Shown here piece after piece: positions 7,014 to 43,189 of a stretch of 64,000 nt of DNA. This DNA is from a bacterium (lineage in GTDB: Bacteria; Patescibacteriota; Dojkabacteria; JAKAPS01; JAJZLI01). Positions within the stretch are counted from its first letter, which is position 1, and every line of letters starts with the position of its first letter. The notes below the pieces were generated by a model that saw only the letters and a list, made by a program, of their open reading frames with translations, ran no database searches and was not told where the DNA came from. Location of the stretch: NCBI GenBank assembly GCA_021810605.1, contig JAJZIL010000001.1, forward strand, positions 67,412 through 131,411, given 5' to 3'. The translations under genes and the position numbers were made by a program.

Positions 7014-9080
7014 TTAAAGATTTCCATTTATATTGCTAATAGATTGATTTGTCATATAATAATAAATATTTTTATTAAGATTTGTTTTTAATAGATTTAA
7101 TATAAAAATTTTATTATTTGATGCTATTATTCCCTTTATGAAATTTGGGTTTTTTGTGTATGATGTAATCTTGTTATAAATTGAGTTATTTATATAAAAA
7201 ACTCCAGAAGTAGGCATTCCAAATGCATTTGAACTTAAATTAGCTATATCTTTTGCATTTACTATTAACCCTAAATTTTTACTTGCGGAATTTAAATCTC
7301 CAGAATTGACAGAAAAAATAGTTTTTACTATTGAACCATTTTTAATTAAAACATACTCATATTTTACTATATTAACATTTCCAGAATTAAATTCAGGAGA
7401 ATTATAAAATACTAGCATGTAATTTTTATTTCCAGAAAGAATTTCATATAGATAATCTAAATTATTGTTATTTTCAGATATTAAATTTTTATTATTTAAA
7501 GAGAGTTTTTCTAGATATGTATAAAATGAAGTTTTAAATCCAGTTTGAAGAGATTGTAATTTTTTGATTTGTGAATTTTGATAATTTAAATTAGTAAGGT
7601 TATATAAAGAAGATATTGCACTTATATTGTTATTATTTGAAAAATCATAAAAAAAAGTATTTATATTTTTCTCTTTGATTATAGTATTATTTATTGAATT
7701 GCTTGTATTAACAGATATCTGAAATGTTTTATAAAAATTGTTATAAATTGGGATATATTTAAAGACAGGAGAAATTATTCCTAGTAGATAAACTGTTTGT
7801 TTTTCGGAATTAAGTAGTTTACTATTTTGGGTTGCAAGAGTTCCAATATTTTCTTTTCCAAAGTTTATTTCTTCTGAATAAATATAACTTTTTGAATTTT
7901 CATAATTTATAACTATGAATCCTATATATACTATAAATATAAACAATATGATTGCTATAAATGTAATAAAATAAAAAAATTTTTTCCCTTTTGGGGATCT
8001 ATTTCTTAGATCTATTTTTGATCTATCTTTAAGATATGCATTTTTTATATTATCAAAATCATGTATATTGATATCATCTTTAATTTTTTCTTTTTCCATA
8101 ACTTTGTTATCTTCAATTACTTCCTTTAAATTAACATCATCTATATGATTTTTAATTTTTTCTATATCTATACTAGAAGAATTATTAAGCATATTAGATA
8201 ATTTATATTCTATTGTATTTCTTATTCCTTCTTCAAAATTTGTTTTTACTTCCCAATTATCGAGAATATTAATTGGATTTTTTATCCTATCTTCTATTTT
8301 TCTATCTCTTGGTTCACTATTTACAACAGGAAACCCAGTAAGATCAGATATTCTAAATGCTAGCGATATATTTGATATATCTTCTTTATTTGAAAGTGAA
8401 AAATCTCCTTTTTTTTGAGAAAATAGTATATTAAATATCCCAGAGACTGCATCATCAATATATATATAATGAGAGAAAGAATGTTCTTTTCTGACTTTTA
8501 TAACCTCCTCTTTTTTGATACTTTCTATAATCATATTAATAGGACTTTTTATAAATACATCAATTCTTTCTCCATAAACATCAGCAATCCTTATCAATGA
8601 GATATTTAAATCATCCATCTCTTTCAATACTTTATTTTCTATAATTTCTTCATAATTATTAAAATTAGAGTTTTCTTTCTTATTAATATTTATAGTAACA
8701 ACAGATTTAGAGTTATAATATTTAGAGATTTCAAAAAAATTATCAAGAAGTTTTACATTTTTATCAATATCAAGTTCTTGATCATATTCAAAATTAGAAA
8801 TAAATATACAGAACCCAATATCTATTATGCTGTTTATTATCTCATCAATATTTATTTCAGAGAGAGTATCTATTACTTTTATTTCACCTTTTATTCCAGA
8901 TTCTTTAATTGTTTTTAATTTTCTAATATTATCAGAATTCTTTTTTGTAACACTATCTAATATAAGTACATTTCCTCCATTTTTAGAGATCTCTTCAGAA
9001 AGTTTTTCTCCTAAAAAATTTAATCCATTAAATATTATGGTTGTAGGTAGTTTTTTTACAAAGAAATTTTTATTTTGCAT
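7014..9080 (-). CDS. membrane protein with degenerate N-terminal NAD-dependent epimerase/dehydratase-like domain, one TM helix and an N/Y/S-rich C-terminal extracytoplasmic domain
   Basis: N-terminal 300 aa carry epimerase-fold landmarks (LIRIADVYGERID, YIYIDDAVSGI, TGFPVV...DNWEVKTNFEEGIRNTIEY) but a degenerate GxxGxxG. TM is FFYFITFIAIILFIFIVYIGFIVI. Operon with the GT4 gene. Confidence 0.55.
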   Translation of the reverse strand: MQNKNFFVKKLPTTIIFNGLNFLGEKLSEEISKNGGNVLILDSVTKKNSDNIRKLKTIKESGIKGEIKVIDTLSEINIDEIINSIIDIGFCIFISNFEYDQELDIDKNVKLLDNFFEISKYYNSKSVVTININKKENSNFNNYEEIIENKVLKEMDDLNISLIRIADVYGERIDVFIKSPINMIIESIKKEEVIKVRKEHSFSHYIYIDDAVSGIFNILFSQKKGDFSLSNKEDISNISLAFRISDLTGFPVVNSEPRDRKIEDRIKNPINILDNWEVKTNFEEGIRNTIEYKLSNMLNNSSSIDIEKIKNHIDDVNLKEVIEDNKVMEKEKIKDDINIHDFDNIKNAYLKDRSKIDLRNRSPKGKKFFYFITFIAIILFIFIVYIGFIVINYENSKSYIYSEEINFGKENIGTLATQNSKLLNSEKQTVYLLGIISPVFKYIPIYNNFYKTFQISVNTSNSINNTIIKEKNINTFFYDFSNNNNISAISSLYNLTNLNYQNSQIKKLQSLQTGFKTSFYTYLEKLSLNNKNLISENNNNLDYLYEILSGNKNYMLVFYNSPEFNSGNVNIVKYEYVLIKNGSIVKTIFSVNSGDLNSASKNLGLIVNAKDIANLSSNAFGMPTSGVFYINNSIYNKITSYTKNPNFIKGIIASNNKIFILNLLKTNLNKNIYYYMTNQSISNINGNL

Positions 9081-9175
9081 TATAATAAAAGATTAACAGG
9101 TTTATTTCTGTATGTAAATTATTGCTTAGATTTATAGACTTTTCCAGATTATTTGAAAGGTATTTTATTTCATAG

Positions 9176-9205
9176 TTGACAAATAAATACAGAGAGTGCT
9201 AATAT
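9176..9205 (+). promoter_or_regulatory. sigma70-like promoter of the hrcA-grpE-dnaK operon (TTGACA-N18-TAATAT)
   Basis: Seen directly: catagTTGACAaataaatacagagagtgcTAATATat. Confidence 0.5.
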
Positions 9206-9215
9206 ATTAGCAGTT
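9194..9215 (+). promoter_or_regulatory. CIRCE-like inverted repeat (GAGTGCTAA-tata-TTAGCAgTt) overlapping the -10 element; putative HrcA operator with non-canonical half-site order and spacing
   Basis: Half-sites match CIRCE halves (TTAGCACTC / GAGTGCTAA) but are arranged 9-N4-9 in everted order; core GCTAATATATTAGC is a perfect palindrome. Confidence 0.5.
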
Positions 9216-9235
9216 AAATTATTTGTTTGCCAAAT

Positions 9236-9958
9236 ATGACACCAAGACAAGCTAAAATACTTGAGTATGTGATATTGGAATATATGGAGACTGCACAAGC
9301 AGTAGGCTCTGTTGCAATGGCAAATAAATATGGGATCAATGTATCTCCTGCGACTATAAGAAATGAGATGTCAAATCTTATAAATCAAGGGTTTCTTTCG
9401 AAAGAGCATTTTTCTTCAGGGAGAATCCCTACGATAGTTGGATTTAGGTATTACATTGAGAATTTGCTCTTTGAAGAACAACTTAATTATCTAGAGGAGA
9501 TGGAGATAAAAGAAAAACTCCACGCAGTAAGGTTTCAAAAGGAAAAAATTTTAAGAAGTGCAGTAGAATCTTTAGCTAAGTCTTTGAAATATACTGCGAT
9601 AGCTCTTGCTTCAGATTCTATTTATTATGCAGGTATTTCTGAAATTTTAGATTATCCTGAGTTTGAAGATATCTCTACACTTAGGAATATAATGTCTGTT
9701 ATAGAGAATTATGATATATTAGAGAGTATTTTTGAAAAAGGGAATAAATTTGAGGGTGGAGTTAAAATTTTAATGGGAGAAGAAACAGGTTTTGCTAGTT
9801 TTAACTCTTGTTCTATTGCTTATTCTGGGTTCAGAATACATAGAGGGGAGCAAGGTTATCTTGCAGTGATAGGACCTTTTAGAATGGATTATAAAAAGGT
9901 ACTTCCTTATTTAAGATATACAGTAGAAGTCTTGGAAGAGGCTACTTCTGGTTGGTAA
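9236..9958 (+). CDS. hrcA: heat-inducible transcription repressor HrcA (short form)
   Basis: MTPRQAKILEYVILEYMETAQAVGSVAMANKYGINVSPATIRNEMSNLINQGFLSKEHFSSGRIPT matches the HrcA N-terminal winged-helix consensus; the track ORF starts at TTG 9227, ATG at 9236 is more likely. Confidence 0.85.
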   Translation: MTPRQAKILEYVILEYMETAQAVGSVAMANKYGINVSPATIRNEMSNLINQGFLSKEHFSSGRIPTIVGFRYYIENLLFEEQLNYLEEMEIKEKLHAVRFQKEKILRSAVESLAKSLKYTAIALASDSIYYAGISEILDYPEFEDISTLRNIMSVIENYDILESIFEKGNKFEGGVKILMGEETGFASFNSCSIAYSGFRIHRGEQGYLAVIGPFRMDYKKVLPYLRYTVEVLEEATSGW

Positions 9959-9977
9959 TTTTATTATATAAATAATT

Positions 9978-10535
9978 ATGGCTGAAAAAAAAATAAAGAA
10001 AGAACAAAAAAAAGATATATCAGAAGAAACTATTGATATTGGAGAAGATACTATAATAGAAGAATTGGACTTAAAAGATAAAATGATAGAGTCACTGACT
10101 CATGAAAAAGAAGATTTAGAGATAAAACTTAAATCTGCTCTTTCTGATTATCAAAATTTTAAGAGAAGAGTTGAAACAGAGAAAGAGAATAGTTCTAATG
10201 TACTTAACAATATTGTTTTAAGAGAATTTCTAAATGTTTTAGATAATATATATCTTTATATGAAGCATTTAGAAAAAGACAAAAGTGTTAGTGATTCTAT
10301 TTTATCAGGAATCAAATTGATTTATGATCAGTGTAATGAGATAGTAGTATCTCAAGGTCTATCATTAGAAGAAGTAAAAGAAGGAGATAGTGTATCTCCC
10401 CTACTTCATGAAGTTGTAGGTACAGTTACAGGAGAAAGAGATGGAATAATTACAGAGGTGGTTAGGGTAGGATATGTAAAAGATGGAAATGTAGTAAGAG
10501 CTGCAAGAGTCATTGTTGAAAAAAAAGAAATTTAA
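9978..10535 (+). CDS. grpE: nucleotide exchange factor GrpE
   Basis: Coiled-coil N-terminus and LSDYQNFKRRVETEKEN region typical of GrpE; position between hrcA and dnaK. Confidence 0.9.
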   Translation: MAEKKIKKEQKKDISEETIDIGEDTIIEELDLKDKMIESLTHEKEDLEIKLKSALSDYQNFKRRVETEKENSSNVLNNIVLREFLNVLDNIYLYMKHLEKDKSVSDSILSGIKLIYDQCNEIVVSQGLSLEEVKEGDSVSPLLHEVVGTVTGERDGIITEVVRVGYVKDGNVVRAARVIVEKKEI

Positions 10536-10557: not shown

Positions 10558-12492
10558 ATGTCAAAAATATTAGGAATCGATCTAGGAACAACTAATTCTG
10601 CTATGGCCTTTATGGAAGGTGGAGAGCCAGTAGTAATAACTAACTCTGAAGGAGCTAGAACAACACCTTCTGTTGTTGCAATACTTCCAGATAAGTCTAG
10701 AGCTGTTGGAGTTAGTGCAAAGAACCAAATGGTATTAAATCCTAAGCAAACTTTTTATTCTATAAAAAGGCTTATAGGAAGATCTTTTGATGATGAAGAG
10801 GTTCAGAGAGATATAAAGGTTTTTCCATTTGAGCTTAGAAAATCCTCTTCAGGAGGAGTTGAGGTTAAAGTTGGAGATGAGTGGTTAGCACCAGAGGCTA
10901 TATCAGCTATGGTTCTATCTAAACTTAAAGCAGATGCAGAAGCTTTTTTAGGTGAAAAAATTACAGAAGCTGTTATTACAGTTCCTGCTTATTTTGATGA
11001 TTCTCAAAGACAAGCTACTAAAAATGCAGGAAAAATTGCAGGGTTAGATGTAAAAAGAATAATTAATGAACCTACTTCTGCTGCTCTTGCATATGGTTTT
11101 GATAAAAAAGGAGAACAAACAATTGTAGTATACGATTTAGGTGGAGGAACTTTCGATGTATCTGTATTAGAGTTAGGAGATGGAATTTTTGAAGTTATTG
11201 CTACTAACGGGGATACTCACCTTGGAGGAGATGATTTTGATAGAAGAATAATTGATTTTATTGCAGATGATTTCAAAAAAACTAATGGGATTGATTTAAG
11301 AACTGATTCTGCAGCATTACAAAGACTTAAAGAAGCAGCAGAAAAGGCAAAAATAGAGCTTTCTTCTACAAATCAAGCTCAAATAAATATACCTTTCATA
11401 ACATCAGATGCAAATGGTCCAAAACATTTAAATATGACTATGACTAGAGCTCAACTAGAATCTCTTGTTAAAGATTTGGTTACAAGTACAATGGATCCTG
11501 TAAAAAAAGCTTTATCTGATGCGAAGAAGAAAGTAGAAGATATTGATGAGGTTATTTTGGTTGGTGGTATGACTAGAATGCCTGCTATTACAGATGCTGT
11601 AAAAGACTTTTTTAAGAAAGAACCTAATAAGAGTGTTAATCCTGATGAAGTTGTAGCTATTGGAGCTGCTGTACAGGGAGGTGTTTTATCTGGAGATGTT
11701 AGAGATGTAACTCTTCTAGATGTAACTCCTTTATCTTTAGGAATTGAGACATTAGGAGGAGTTTCCACAAGGATTATAGAGAGAAATTCTACAATTCCTA
11801 TTCAGAAGAAGCAGGTTTTCACTACGGCAGCTGACACTCAAACATCTGTAGAAATTCATATTCTACAAGGAGAGAGAGAATTTGCAAAAGATAATAAAAC
11901 TTTAGGTAGATTTATACTTGATGGTATTGCTCCAGCTAAAAGAGGAATTCCTCAAATAGAAGTAACTTTTGATATTGATGCAAATGGAATACTAAAAGTC
12001 TCTGCTCAAGATAAAGCTACAGGAAAAGAACAACATATAACTATTACTGCAAATACTTCTTTGTCAGACTCAGAAATAGAGAAATTACTAAAAGAGGCTA
12101 AAGAACACGAAGAAGAGGATAAAAAGAAAAAAGAGTTAGTAGATGTTAAGAATTCAGCAGAAACAGTAGCTTTTTCAGCTGAAACTTTCTTGAATGAAAA
12201 TAAAGATAAAATTGATCAAGAGAAACAGGATCAAATGCAATCTAAAATAACAGAACTTAGAGATATAGCTTCTAAAGAGGATACAGACAAAGAGTCTATT
12301 GAAAAAGCTCTTTCTGAATTGGAAACTTTAATGCAAGAGATTGGTTCCTCTATGAATCAACAAGCATCTTCTGAATCTAATCCTACTGGAGAAGAAAATC
12401 CTCCAGAAGGAGATGGTGCAACAGATCAAACAGATCAAAACTCAGGAGGAAGTGATTCAACTGATGATGTAAAAGAGGGTGAAGTTCTCTAA
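10558..12492 (+). CDS. dnaK: molecular chaperone DnaK (Hsp70)
   Basis: Hsp70 signatures [31 protein letters not shown]; 644 aa. Confidence 0.98.
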
Positions 12493-12552: not shown

Positions 12553-12834
12553 ATGCATTATTATAATCAACCAGGTGTTCACAATTTAAATTTTATTCCT
12601 TTTGCCTTTTTTGGGGCATTGATGTTTGGTTTATTTTGGTTAATTGTGATCATTATTCTCGTATACTTTTTTAAAAAATCTAAACATCATAGACACCATA
12701 TACATTATGGATCATTAGGTTCGAATAGTGCAGAAAATCTTCTGAAAGAGAGATTCGTAAAAGGAGAGATTAATGATGAAGAGTATAAGCGAATGAAAAA
12801 AACTTTATCCGAAGATGTAGAGGATAAAAAATAA
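12553..12834 (+). CDS. small membrane protein with C-terminal SHOCT domain
   Basis: TM helix FGALMFGLFWLIVIIILVYFF, His-rich linker, then ENLLKERFVKGEINDEEYKRMKKTL (SHOCT motif). Confidence 0.6.
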   Translation: MHYYNQPGVHNLNFIPFAFFGALMFGLFWLIVIIILVYFFKKSKHHRHHIHYGSLGSNSAENLLKERFVKGEINDEEYKRMKKTLSEDVEDKK

Positions 12835-33380: not shown

Positions 33381-34019
33381 ATGGATGAGCAAAGTATAGA
33401 GAATATACCAAAAGAGGTTCTGACTGAACAGTATAAACAACTTTTGATAGAGGTAGATTCACTCAAGAAGGATTTATCTGTTAGTCAAGTAAAATTAAAG
33501 GATAATTCTGTACAGATAGAAATTCTTTTAAGACAAATTGATAGGTTAAGACATGATGGAAAAATAGATAAAATGACAAATCTATTTAACAATAATTATC
33601 TTGAAGACAGCTCTGTTGTCTCTGAATTAGAGTCATTATCAAAGAATGGTATAGATTTTGGTATAATTTTTATAGATTTAAATGATCTTAAAAAAATAAA
33701 TGATTCAAAGGGACATAAAGAAGGAGATAAATATATAATTGAATCTTCTAAAGCATTAGTGGAAGTAATTTCTGCTAGAGATACAGTTGTAAGAAAGGGG
33801 GGAGATGAATTTGTAGTTATTGTAAGGCATATTAATTCAGAATATTTACCAAATATAGAAAATACAATTTTAGATAGAATAAAACTATCTTTTTCAGAAA
33901 AGGGTATTAGTGCATCTTTGGGTTTTGCATTATCTTCTGAATGTGGTCATAGTCTAAAGGATACAATAAATTTAGCAGATCAGAGGATGTATATTGTAAA
34001 AAAGGAAGCAAAAAAATAA
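33381..34019 (+). CDS. diguanylate cyclase (GGDEF domain) with N-terminal coiled coil, no sensor domain
   Basis: GIIFIDLNDLKKINDSKGHKEGD ... RKGGDEFVVIV (GGDEF motif present). Confidence 0.8.
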   Translation: MDEQSIENIPKEVLTEQYKQLLIEVDSLKKDLSVSQVKLKDNSVQIEILLRQIDRLRHDGKIDKMTNLFNNNYLEDSSVVSELESLSKNGIDFGIIFIDLNDLKKINDSKGHKEGDKYIIESSKALVEVISARDTVVRKGGDEFVVIVRHINSEYLPNIENTILDRIKLSFSEKGISASLGFALSSECGHSLKDTINLADQRMYIVKKEAKK

Positions 34020-38745: not shown

Positions 38746-40173
38746 TTATTCGTTTGGAGGGACTGTGTAATTGCCATTCGTTATCTTTATGAGTAGAGAC
38801 AATACCTCACTTTGTGCTTGAGAAAGAGTAATCTTTCCTGATATTACTGTATCAAATATATTTGATACAGCTCTGTAATCACCTATTTTCCAAGATTTTG
38901 AACTTGGAGCCATTTGTATAAATGGAATCATATATTTATATTGTGTAGCAAGATTAGCCATATCTACTCTAGGAAATATTTCTCCAACAACTTCATTATT
39001 TTTAAGCTCATTATTATATAGTTGTTGTAGTACACTTTTAGAGTCTAAGTACCTTACAAATTGCCAAGCTGCTGTTGGATGTTGAGAGTATTTAGTAACA
39101 GCCTTTGCAAAATATAAAGAAAGATTTACAGTTTTTCCTGGTAATTGTGGTGGTGTAGCTACTCCTAAATCAATATTGGGATTTAATTTTAATATATTTT
39201 GTATTTCCCAAGATGGTTCAAAAACCATAGCAACTGAACCTCCAGCAAATGCAGATACAGAGTTAGGAAAAGTAGCTTCCCATCCATCTTCTGCAGCAAT
39301 AGAATTATATAGATTTAGTGCTTCTTGACCATTTTGCCCATTTGCAAAAGTTACTGCACTAGAAGATAGCATACTAGTATTATTTATAAACATTAAATAG
39401 GTGAGGATGTTATAGGCATTATTTATATTAGAGGTATTAGTACCTATATCTACTGCAGCTTGAGTTACATTTCCATTACTATCTTTTACTACTAGTTTAG
39501 GTATTTGAGATACAAATGTATTTATATTTTCAGAAGGTGCAGATAACCCAGCTTTTGCAAATTCAGTTTTATTATATAATAAGGCTAATCCATCATAATT
39601 TTCAGGTAATGCATAAATCTTTCCTTGACTAGTAAGGTCATTTACAGCTGTTGTATAGAAAAGATTCTGGAATTGAGACATATCTATTACAGATGAAGGA
39701 GCAGGTGATAGGAATTTTTGATATATAGGAAGATAGGTATTTCCAATAGGAACTATATCAGGTTCATTTATCCCAGAAGAGAGTTTATTAAAAAGAGAAC
39801 TTTCATAATAAGTAGATGGGACTAATGTATATTGTATTTTTATTCCAGGATGAAGTTTTTCATATTCTTTTATAACCGGCTCATAAACACTCGCAGGTTG
39901 TCTTATTCCCCACATAGTTAGAGTTATATTATTATATTGAGTATTAACTTTTCTGTATTCTAAATAATATATTACTAATGATCCTATGATAAGTATTAGT
40001 ACAAAAGATATTATTCCTATATATATTAATCTTTTCTTTTTTCTTCTAATTTCATTAATCTCTACAAATGTATTATCTGTCAAAGCATTTTGAGAATCAT
40101 TAGATATGACATCCTCTTTTTTAGGCTCAGGTGTCTGAGTAGGAGTATTTGTATTCTGATTGTTATCTTGCAT
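38746..40173 (-). CDS. membrane-anchored extracellular solute-binding protein (SBP family 1-like), orphan
   Basis: N-terminal TM, then LTMWGIRQPASVYEPVIKEYEKLHPGIKIQYTLVPSTYYESSL typical of sugar-type SBPs; no permease or ATPase genes adjacent. Confidence 0.55.
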   Translation of the reverse strand: MQDNNQNTNTPTQTPEPKKEDVISNDSQNALTDNTFVEINEIRRKKKRLIYIGIISFVLILIIGSLVIYYLEYRKVNTQYNNITLTMWGIRQPASVYEPVIKEYEKLHPGIKIQYTLVPSTYYESSLFNKLSSGINEPDIVPIGNTYLPIYQKFLSPAPSSVIDMSQFQNLFYTTAVNDLTSQGKIYALPENYDGLALLYNKTEFAKAGLSAPSENINTFVSQIPKLVVKDSNGNVTQAAVDIGTNTSNINNAYNILTYLMFINNTSMLSSSAVTFANGQNGQEALNLYNSIAAEDGWEATFPNSVSAFAGGSVAMVFEPSWEIQNILKLNPNIDLGVATPPQLPGKTVNLSLYFAKAVTKYSQHPTAAWQFVRYLDSKSVLQQLYNNELKNNEVVGEIFPRVDMANLATQYKYMIPFIQMAPSSKSWKIGDYRAVSNIFDTVISGKITLSQAQSEVLSLLIKITNGNYTVPPNE

Positions 40174-41122: not shown

Positions 41123-43189
41123 ATGGAGAATACTGAAAATGCGCATGCAGTACCACAAAATATAATGAGTGTCGAGTTCAAATTGATAGGAGATTTGTCT
41201 TTGAAACAATTTGTTTTTATAGCTGTTCCTCTGACACTAGGTTTTATAATGTATGTTTTTCATGTAAATAATTATATAACAATTGTATTTACTGGTTTTT
41301 TACTTCTAATAGCACTATTTATAGATTTTGTTCCTGTAGATGATAGACCATTAGATGATTTAATAGTAAATTTTTTAATTGCAATTAAAAACCCAACACA
41401 AAGAGTTTGGAGAAAAAATCCAGAATTTCCAAATATACTTAAAATTCCTAAAATATTAATGCCACAAGAAAAAAAGGATAGTGAAATTGCTACATTTATG
41501 TATCAATCTCCAATAGATAGTAATCTTAATTCACCTTCATCTTCAGATGCTTCGAAATTTTTAGATCAAAGAGAGAAAATTCTTATTGATAATATAGATA
41601 AATTAAATGATTCTCTCAATTCTACACCATCTGGAAACTCAATGGTATCTCCTTCTATTAATAATAATATTCCTTCTTCAGGGATGAATATAAATCCTCC
41701 TTTTATAAATCCATCAGGGAATAATATTAATTCTAATAATCCTCAGAAAGATGAAGTTAATCAATCACAAAATGTAGGAATGGGAACTGGGAATACGAGT
41801 TCGAATATATCATCTCAAAATTTAGGGAATAATAATTCTCCATTTGTTAATAATATTGGAGTAGACCAAAATTTATCGAAATCATCCTCTTTTTCTAATA
41901 ACAATAGTGTAAATGTATTGGAACCTCTAAGAAAACCAGATCCAAAAGATTTCTATAAAAAGTCTTCTGAAGATAATATTGAACATCCTATAAACACTGC
42001 AGTTTTTAATACAGGAAGTATTCCTACAGTTGATCCTAATATTAATCCTCAGAATCCATTTAATTCTGGAGTAGGGAATATTAGTTCAAATTTTGTTCCT
42101 AATACTCCACCTATAACAAATCCTAATATGGGAGTACCTCAAATGAATATTCCAAAAGTAGATAAGAATTATATTAATCCTAATAACAACCCTCCTATAC
42201 AAAATGAAATTAATAACTTCTCTCAACAACCAAGTGTAAATTTGCCACCTATACAACCAGATACAAATATTTCTCAGGGGCAGAATACTGTTCAATCTCT
42301 AACTCAAACAACAGTATCTACTTCATTTGATAGTAATTTAAGTGAACCTCCTGATACTTCGAGTGTGTCAGTAGATACAAATGCTATTCCTCATTCTTAT
42401 GATTATCTATCTTCCTCACCTTCAGAGACTCCTAAAATAGATGAAAATATTGTTAGTCAAACTGTAAATACTAATAAAACTCTTGATCCAGATATTGATA
42501 TAAAAAAAATACTTGAGAAACTAGAAAAACTTGAGAAAGAAAATGATAAGTTAAAAAAACAAGTTGATGAGCAAAATGAAAAAATTGATATAGCTCAAGA
42601 AGTCATAGATCAAAAAAATAGACAAGATGAAATTAATGTATCTAACGTATCCTCGGAGACTCCTTCTCCAAGTCCACAAGATGATATTTCTAATACATTG
42701 GGTATTAATCCTGTATTTGAAAATAATTCTATTCAACCTAGTGTAGATACTACAATTTTAGATTCTAAGAATCAGAAGGAAATTCCTTCTGAAAATAACT
42801 TAAGTTCCTCTATGACTAATCTTACATCACAATCTAATGTATCTACTCAGAATCCAGAGACTACAAAGTCTTCTAAGCAAGAGAGTTTGAAGAAAGAAGA
42901 TATTTTAAAATACCTTCCAGATTTTGTCAGTAATCCGAATATAATCTCTGGTGTAGTTATGAAAAATACAGGGCAGATCCTTCCTGATACAGTAATAATA
43001 ATAAAAGATTCTTCACAAAAACCAGTTAGAGCTATTAAGACTAATCAATTAGGACAATTCTTTATTAGGACTCCTCTTTTGTCAGGAACGTATAATTTAG
43101 AAATTGCATATCAAGGTTTGACATTTGATCCTATCTTTATAGAACTTGATGATACTGTTAAGGATCCTATGTTAATTTATTCAAAATAA
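41123..43189 (+). CDS. PrgI/VirB3-like two-TM protein fused to a long low-complexity extracellular region, coiled coil and C-terminal CarboxypepD_reg-like beta-sandwich
   Basis: N-terminus VEFKLIGDLSLKQFVFIAVPLTLGFIMYVF plus second TM (PrgI-family pattern); about 400 aa N/S/P-rich; coiled coil ILEKLEKLEKENDKLKKQVDEQNEKIDIAQE; C-terminal ISGVVMKNTGQILPDTVIIIKD...GQFFIRTPLLSGTYNLEIAYQG. Confidence 0.5.
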   Translation: MENTENAHAVPQNIMSVEFKLIGDLSLKQFVFIAVPLTLGFIMYVFHVNNYITIVFTGFLLLIALFIDFVPVDDRPLDDLIVNFLIAIKNPTQRVWRKNPEFPNILKIPKILMPQEKKDSEIATFMYQSPIDSNLNSPSSSDASKFLDQREKILIDNIDKLNDSLNSTPSGNSMVSPSINNNIPSSGMNINPPFINPSGNNINSNNPQKDEVNQSQNVGMGTGNTSSNISSQNLGNNNSPFVNNIGVDQNLSKSSSFSNNNSVNVLEPLRKPDPKDFYKKSSEDNIEHPINTAVFNTGSIPTVDPNINPQNPFNSGVGNISSNFVPNTPPITNPNMGVPQMNIPKVDKNYINPNNNPPIQNEINNFSQQPSVNLPPIQPDTNISQGQNTVQSLTQTTVSTSFDSNLSEPPDTSSVSVDTNAIPHSYDYLSSSPSETPKIDENIVSQTVNTNKTLDPDIDIKKILEKLEKLEKENDKLKKQVDEQNEKIDIAQEVIDQKNRQDEINVSNVSSETPSPSPQDDISNTLGINPVFENNSIQPSVDTTILDSKNQKEIPSENNLSSSMTNLTSQSNVSTQNPETTKSSKQESLKKEDILKYLPDFVSNPNIISGVVMKNTGQILPDTVIIIKDSSQKPVRAIKTNQLGQFFIRTPLLSGTYNLEIAYQGLTFDPIFIELDDTVKDPMLIYSK

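Follow-up and report, generated by a model that had tools for sequence, protein, structure and literature searches.

Results

A short HrcA heads a chaperone operon in a Dojkabacteria genome

The analysed window is a 64-kb stretch of DNA with a G+C content of 27.5%, from a member of Candidatus Dojkabacteria in the candidate phyla radiation (CPR). Three consecutive genes in it were identified by their Pfam matches as a heat-shock operon:

9236..9958, plus strand: hrcA, short form, 240 aa, with its ATG at 9236 (PF01628, 1.5e-24)
9978..10535, plus strand: grpE (PF01025, 1.2e-23)
10558..12492, plus strand: dnaK (PF00012, 1.2e-253)

An open reading frame (ORF) of 93 amino acids with a SHOCT domain (12553-12834) follows dnaK, in the place of dnaJ.

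The closest named homologues of the encoded HrcA belong to Candidatus Dojkabacteria (WS6). An alignment of 20 homologues shows no variation in the SPATIRNEM helix or the GRIPT wing, and the same half-site specificity is therefore expected for this repressor. Residues 3-81 align to residues 17-95 of Thermotoga maritima HrcA (1STZ; sequence match E = 1e-11), and residues 104-178 align weakly to 1STZ 202-279. The AlphaFold model of the protein (pLDDT 89.6) gave TM-scores to 1STZ of 0.77 (query) and 0.60 (target). From this partial alignment and fold match it follows that about 100 residues of the T. maritima protein, roughly 96-201, are without a counterpart here; most simply, we take them to be the inserted dimerising domain of 1STZ. 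With the gene present, its motifs invariant and its modelled fold matching, autoregulation of hrcA-grpE-dnaK by HrcA is a natural reading and a likely one.

The reported motif overlaps an extended −10 promoter

A promoter scan placed the best promoter-like site of the region, TTGACA-18-TAATAT with TG, upstream of hrcA. The elements of this site, and the sequences that overlap it, are as follows:

9176..9181, plus strand: −35 box TTGACA of the hrcA-grpE-dnaK promoter (promoter scan), invariant across all close relatives
9197..9205, plus strand: extended −10 box TGCTAATAT (TG-n-TAATAT; promoter scan), with an 18-nt spacer from the −35 box
9194..9202, no strand: GAGTGCTAA, a perfect CIRCE right-arm sequence by half-site score, overlapping the extended −10 box
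9197..9212, no strand: perfect 16-bp palindrome TGCTAATATATTAGCA, at the junction of the extended −10 box and a CIRCE left arm

The two hexamers (9176-9181 and 9200-9205), with the TG at 9197-9198, give 10/12 matches plus TG, and the site can equally be written as TTGACA, 15 nt, then TGC-TAATAT. It thus has the TTGACA-like −35 box, the spacer of 16-18 nt and the TG-n-TAnnnT motif of a sigma-70 extended −10 promoter, and TG.TA...T is invariant in eight aligned relatives. Together with the Pfam matches, the scan bears out the original prediction in its identification of an hrcA-grpE-dnaK promoter at this place.

The original prediction had further described a 22-mer with both CIRCE half-site sequences in everted order, 4 nt apart, and a palindromic core coinciding with the TAATAT −10 box. 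Both descriptions hold. The 22-mer GAGTGCTAATATATTAGCAGTT, which reads GAGTGCTAA-TATA-TTAGCAGTT, has a single copy in the 64-kb window, at 9194-9215; the range first reported for it, 9176-9215, takes in the −35 box as well. The core of the ‘everted’ motif is TGCTAATATATTAGCA, a perfect palindrome of 16 bp.

The palindrome by itself is not remarkable, as the window holds 11 perfect palindromes of at least 16 bp against about 3.8 expected under a first-order Markov model. Two longer ones, of 24 bp (CTGTATCAAATATATTTGATACAG, 38847-38870) and 20 bp (TTTTTAATTGCAATTAAAAA, 41372-41391), lie inside long ORFs. What does stand out is the presence of a perfect CIRCE arm in the promoter of hrcA: GAGTGCTAA has the maximum half-site score, 16.3 bits, in a window whose 99.99th percentile is 10.5. 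When one mismatch is allowed, the sequence occurs in the window at the chance rate (13 observed, 12.1 expected).

GAGTGCTAA is, in large part, the extended −10 box TG-n-TAA. TGCTAnnnT or TGnTAnnnT boxes precede many other genes of the window, so that TGCTAATAT is an ordinary promoter element here. In many cases the box stands only 6-12 nt before the ATG (for example at 33381, 41123, 47153, 6912 and 50669), and −10 boxes so near the start codon suggest, from their position in the sequence, that leaderless or very-short-leader mRNAs may be widespread. The Shine-Dalgarno motif is near-absent from the window; the only clear one, AAGGAGGTG, precedes a minus-strand gene starting at 853.

A degenerate CIRCE of canonical geometry adjoins the −10 box

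The CIRCE consensus of the class I heat-shock operons, with Bacillus subtilis dnaK and groESL as examples, is TTAGCACTC-N9-GAGTGCTAA (Zuber & Schumann 1994, cited and restated in PMC7464140). Read against it, the right-hand 9-mer of the 22-mer has a second possible partner. Exactly 9 nt past TTAGCAGTT (9207-9215) lies GTTTGCCAA (9225-9233), and the two arms stand in head-to-head order. The resulting element, and the next-best match in the window, are as follows:

9207..9233, no strand: degenerate 9-N9-9 CIRCE TTAGCAGTT-AAATTATTT-GTTTGCCAA, the proposed HrcA operator, from the family matrix, the core pattern and conservation
9176..9202, no strand: the core promoter as a CIRCE look-alike, TTGACAAAT-N9-GAGTGCTAA, second matrix match (10.0 bits) with a poor left arm

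A single nucleotide separates the element at 9207-9233 from the −10 hexamer on its upstream side, and 2 nt separate it from the hrcA ATG on the other; it spans the predicted transcription start (~9212). It has two 9-bp arms in the CIRCE order with a 9-nt spacer, at the promoter of a chaperone operon in a genome that encodes HrcA. In the 22-mer at 9194-9215, the arms are reversed and the spacer is 4 nt.

TTAGCAGTT matches the B. subtilis consensus at 7/9 positions and GTTTGCCAA, which has TGCCAA instead of TGCTAA, at 6/9, giving 13/18 together. A window search with the strict CIRCE consensus and at most three mismatches returned no match, because the element has five. The half-sites score 11.6 bits (TTAGCAGTT) and 7.9 bits (GTTTGCCAA), against a 99.9th percentile of 4.1 in the window. 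The core pattern TTAGCA-N15-TGCTAA, allowed up to two mismatches, has three matches only in the 64 kb, and two of them are adjacent here (9176-9202 and 9207-9233); the second fits with a single mismatch. We also scored the window with a symmetrised matrix, for which 69 CIRCEs from related genomes with a short HrcA (described below) were used. The element at 9207-9233 ranks first with 19.3 bits, followed by 9176-9202 with 10.0 and the next match with 3.1.

As the two adjacent matches are the best two in the window, we considered whether they form a tandem CIRCE and rejected this as the main model. The left arm of the upstream match is the −35 box, which scores −5.8 bits; TTGACAAAT has A at position 4, where 137/138 family half-sites have G. 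On these grounds 9176-9202 is not a second CIRCE. Other promoter-like sequences also top the background list of matrix matches.

The claim of a non-canonical operator had thus missed a 9-N9-9 CIRCE that is the top matrix score of the window. That HrcA still autoregulates the operon stands as likely, given hrcA itself, its motifs and a CIRCE-type sequence at the promoter; that it does so through a rearranged geometry does not, since the 9-N9-9 element shares TTAGCAGTT with the everted pair. We read the ‘inside-out’ operator as an extended −10 box adjoining the left arm of a normal-geometry CIRCE, in an essentially ordinary promoter, and put the probability of this explanation as a whole at about two in three. 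The palindrome at the junction arises because TTAGCA is the reverse complement of TGCTAA, and TGCTAA fits the extended −10 pattern TG-n-TA-A. The ‘everted CIRCE’ would be a by-product of such a −10 box standing next to a CIRCE left arm. What counts against the explanation is that 9207-9233 is weak as a CIRCE, with 13/18 consensus matches and only 5/9 positions complementary between its own two arms.

The 9-N9-9 geometry is conserved in close relatives

The close set comprised 12 sequences: the window and 11 relatives with 52-89% HrcA identity (L096, L081, L089, L087, L082, L097, L086, L090, L098, L092 and L001). All 12 share one layout. It runs from cTTGACAa over 14-15 nt to TGnTAnnnT, then over 1-4 nt to a left arm that is TTAGCA or a single-base variant of it (TTGGCA, TTATCA or CTAGCA), and then over 9 nt to a right arm nnnTGC(T/C)A(A/G), which ends 2-7 nt before the ATG (28 nt in L001). 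In an eight-sequence alignment, variation is absent from the columns of the −35 box, of TG.TA...T, of both CIRCE arm cores and of the start codon.

Aligning related hrcA promoters, which the original prediction had proposed as a check, speaks against a rearranged operator. The 9-N9-9 geometry is kept in 14/14 distinct close or Dojkabacteria relatives, and the N9 spacer is constant throughout them, whereas the everted spacing varies. Most close relatives have 4 nt separating the TGnTAn hexamer from the left arm; the distance is 7 nt in L092, L001 and L097, and 1 nt in L099, whose box TGCTAAACT and left arm CTAGCACTT overlap. At or below 66% HrcA identity, the 9-mer on the −10 side scores −3.0 to −18.7 bits, and the canonical arms stay positive. 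In L004, L100 and L002 the CIRCE precedes the −10 box: in the first two, the arm TTAGCACTT contains a −35-like TTGAC and an extended −10 box lies 1 nt past the right arm, and the arrangement in L002 is similar.

RNAalifold analysis of eight relatives found a single shared inverted repeat, the canonical CIRCE arms, and no compensatory changes, as would be expected if the palindrome is bound by protein and not if it forms an RNA structure.

Two further features of these loci were observed. Upstream of hrcA in L082 (66% HrcA identity; 2850-2945), and also in L083-L085, the box cTTGACA(a/t) occurs four times in tandem at intervals of about 15 nt, and in L082 the last copy serves as the −35 box for hrcA. 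GrpE is far longer in L099 (1021-2004, 327 aa) and L100 (2226-3119, 297 aa) than in the window (185 aa), and that of L099 has an additional YecM-family Pfam match.

Short-HrcA genomes carry CIRCE in its usual form

The wider set consisted of 80 hrcA loci (L001-L080) from short-HrcA genomes, most of which are Microgenomates and a few Dojkabacteria, and the median length of the HrcA ORF across them is 240 aa. A CIRCE was called as 9-N9-9 with at most four mismatches within 250 nt upstream of hrcA. Such an element was found at 69/80 loci, compared with 2/1600 shuffled upstream regions, so that the short repressor accompanies a normal operator geometry. Neither the window nor any of the loci L001-L080 contains groEL motifs.

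At 67/69 sites the CIRCE is preceded, at a distance of 2-5 nt, by the end of a TTGACA box, and 44/69 sites have an extended −10 box within their N9 spacer. Loci L005-L080 (Microgenomates and other Patescibacteria) resemble the window in their short HrcA, their −35 box cTTGACAa and their arms, TTAGCA(C/G)T(C/A)-N9-(G/T)A(G/C)TGCTAA. They differ in the placing of the operator: there the CIRCE begins 2-5 nt past the −35 box with the −10 box in its spacer, whereas in the clade of the window the entire CIRCE lies downstream of the −10 box.

A conserved GAG and a possible third half-site

A different account of the perfect arm GAGTGCTAA is that it is itself bound by HrcA. The operator would then be composite, R'-N4-L-N9-R, with L and R the canonical arms and R' an extended −10 box that became a complete CIRCE arm within a single young subclade of Dojkabacteria. 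One HrcA dimer would sit on L-N9-R and an extra subunit or dimer would contact R', covering the −10 box and offsetting the weak arms. We regard this as unlikely, though more probable than the other alternatives.

The case for it comes from the five closest genomes, those with at least 75% HrcA identity (the window, L096, L081, L089 and L087). Across them GAGTG(C/A)TAA is invariant at 8/9 positions and is better kept than either canonical arm. The GAG triplet, which has no known promoter role, is invariant in 5/5, next to a 12-nt spacer with 43% pairwise identity; by our own estimate three invariant GAG columns would arise by chance with a probability of about 0.02, a figure that takes the invariance of an unconstrained column as about 0.28 and ignores shared ancestry. 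The sequence is GAGTGCTAA, at the maximum score, in the window, L081 and L089, and GAGTGATAA in L087 and L096 (8.5 bits in L087). Its gap to the left arm is a constant 4 nt in all five. By arithmetic on the coordinates, the core hexamers centre at about 9199.5, 9209.5 and 9230.5, that is, 10 and 21 bp apart, which would set all three on one face of the helix. The canonical arms are, moreover, weakest where R' is perfect: in L081, the closest genome with a long contig, the element is weaker still than that of the window (TTATCAATT and GATTGCCAG, with the left half at 1.4 bits).

Against these points, a third half-site within 0-15 nt was found at 0/69 of the canonical CIRCEs of the wider relatives, and the R' feature is lost at or below 66% HrcA identity, where its score falls below noise. 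Five or six of its nine bases are already demanded by the (R)TG-n-TA pattern of an extended −10 box. The partner position 9 nt upstream of R' is TTGACAAAT, which, at −5.8 bits and with A at the near-invariant G, is no half-site. The five genomes are closely related, and the conservation is therefore only weakly independent. On the pattern of sequence conservation, GAGTG(C/A)TAA may serve as an auxiliary third HrcA half-site in these five genomes.

Other readings of the symmetry

Very improbable, in our assessment, is the view closest to the original prediction, in which the everted pair GAGTGCTAA-N4-TTAGCAGTT alone is the operator and is bound by an HrcA dimer of altered geometry. Both 9-mers are present, with a perfect 16-bp palindrome over the −10 box, and an HrcA without some 100 residues of the T. 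maritima protein could in principle have a different dimer spacing. Yet the short HrcA accompanies 9-N9-9 CIRCEs at 69/80 loci, the everted spacing takes values of 1, 4 or 7 nt among relatives, and the left 9-mer ceases to be CIRCE-like at or below 66% identity. The view also leaves unexplained the downstream TGC(T/C)A(A/G) at N9, which is kept in every close relative.

The symmetry of the locus extends over a larger feature:

9170..9239, no strand: 70-bp imperfect dyad with 35-nt arms, 74% complementary, genome-specific

Its outer arms match at 18/27 positions, a level reached by 0.02% of window positions. Read as RNA, the dyad would be a 70-nt hairpin in an mRNA whose 5' end lies farther upstream, where it would act as a thermometer or stability element; we think this barely credible. 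The predicted fold is stable (−20.8 kcal/mol, z = −4.4) and places the ATG in the basal stem, where the start codon region TATGA pairs with TCATA. The hairpin is not conserved, however: relatives share the CIRCE arms only, with z-scores of −1.07 to +1.21 and no compensatory changes. The conserved TTGACA and TGnTAnnnT boxes lie within its left arm, and a transcript beginning at the predicted start (~9212) would therefore be without that arm. A search of Rfam found no family at the gathering threshold anywhere in the window. We take the dyad to be genome-specific and probably without function.

Just as hard to credit is a symmetric bidirectional promoter, in which the palindrome also drives divergent transcription toward the gene starting at 9080: the promoter scan does find TTGGCA-18-TAATAT with TG on the minus strand (9233 down to 9204; 9/12 matches plus TG), but the divergent 688-aa gene (7014-9080) has a promoter-like site of its own, TTTACA-17-TGTTAATCT (9087-9118, minus strand), which ends 9 nt before its ATG in the layout typical of this genome, and by our reading of the sequences the minus-strand boxes are lost in L089 and more distant relatives.

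Discussion

Returning to the preferred reading, an extended −10 box next to a normal-geometry CIRCE, the promoter would work much as in classical systems. From the sequences, their conservation and the identities of the genes, we infer that a sigma-70-type extended −10 promoter drives hrcA-grpE-dnaK, with transcription predicted to start near 9212. An HrcA dimer on 9207-9233 would cover the start and nearly the whole of the short leader, and would block RNA polymerase at the start site. This would amount to classical negative autoregulation, with repression relieved once unfolded protein titrates the chaperones. The predicted transcript would be without most of the CIRCE left arm, which makes a CIRCE hairpin in the mRNA unlikely.

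The class I CIRCE of B. subtilis offers the nearest comparison. The two systems have in common 9-bp arms placed head-to-head around a 9-nt spacer, a position at the transcription start (here predicted), an hrcA-grpE-dnaK operon with the repressor as its first gene, and an expected steric mode of repression. The element of the window differs in its degenerate arms and its AT-rich CPR host (27.5% GC), in a repressor of the 240-aa form with about 100 residues fewer than T. maritima HrcA, in its tight placement 1 nt after the −10 box and 2 nt before the ATG of a leader without Shine-Dalgarno motif, and in the perfect extra arm sequence that overlaps the −10 box. At Pgro and Phrc of Campylobacter jejuni, DNase I footprints of HrcA extend over 30-40 bp and cover the transcription start (PMC7464140). 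There too a single CIRCE-like repeat overlaps the transcription start, which in the window is a predicted one; in C. jejuni, HrcA binding was shown experimentally and HspR acts as a co-regulator (PMC7464140), whereas the element of the window is known from its sequence.

In the collection of papers that we searched, none joins CIRCE or HrcA with Patescibacteria. A scan of JGI metagenomes for the 19-mer GAGTGCTAATATATTAGCA found no contig of the clade of the window and three unrelated matches: one in a coding region, one on a high-GC contig and one in a high-GC rpoH-like promoter with a perfect CIRCE. In L093, an unrelated contig (1995-2065, minus strand; 59.7% GC), a perfect CIRCE, TTAGCACTC-N9-GAGTGCTAA, is followed by TATA-TTAGCA upstream of a gene for an RpoH-like sigma factor; that it shares the 19-mer with the window is probably chance.

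With the main reading, HrcA/CIRCE control extends into the Dojkabacteria and Microgenomates of the CPR with its 9-N9-9 geometry intact. This geometry persists despite a repressor shorter by about 100 residues and in genomes that scarcely use Shine-Dalgarno motifs. The case also holds a caution for motif searches: as TGCTAA also makes a good extended −10 box (TG-n-TAA), promoters of AT-rich genomes can mimic CIRCE arms and so yield spurious ‘everted’ operators.

Beyond this, the one question of broader bearing is whether GAGTG(C/A)TAA, conserved in five close genomes, is a real third half-site. If it is, the repressor would read the −10 box itself, and the promoter element and the repressor half-site would be the same nine bases. 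In that case, the third half-site may make up for the decay of the canonical CIRCE and for the missing inserted domain of the repressor.
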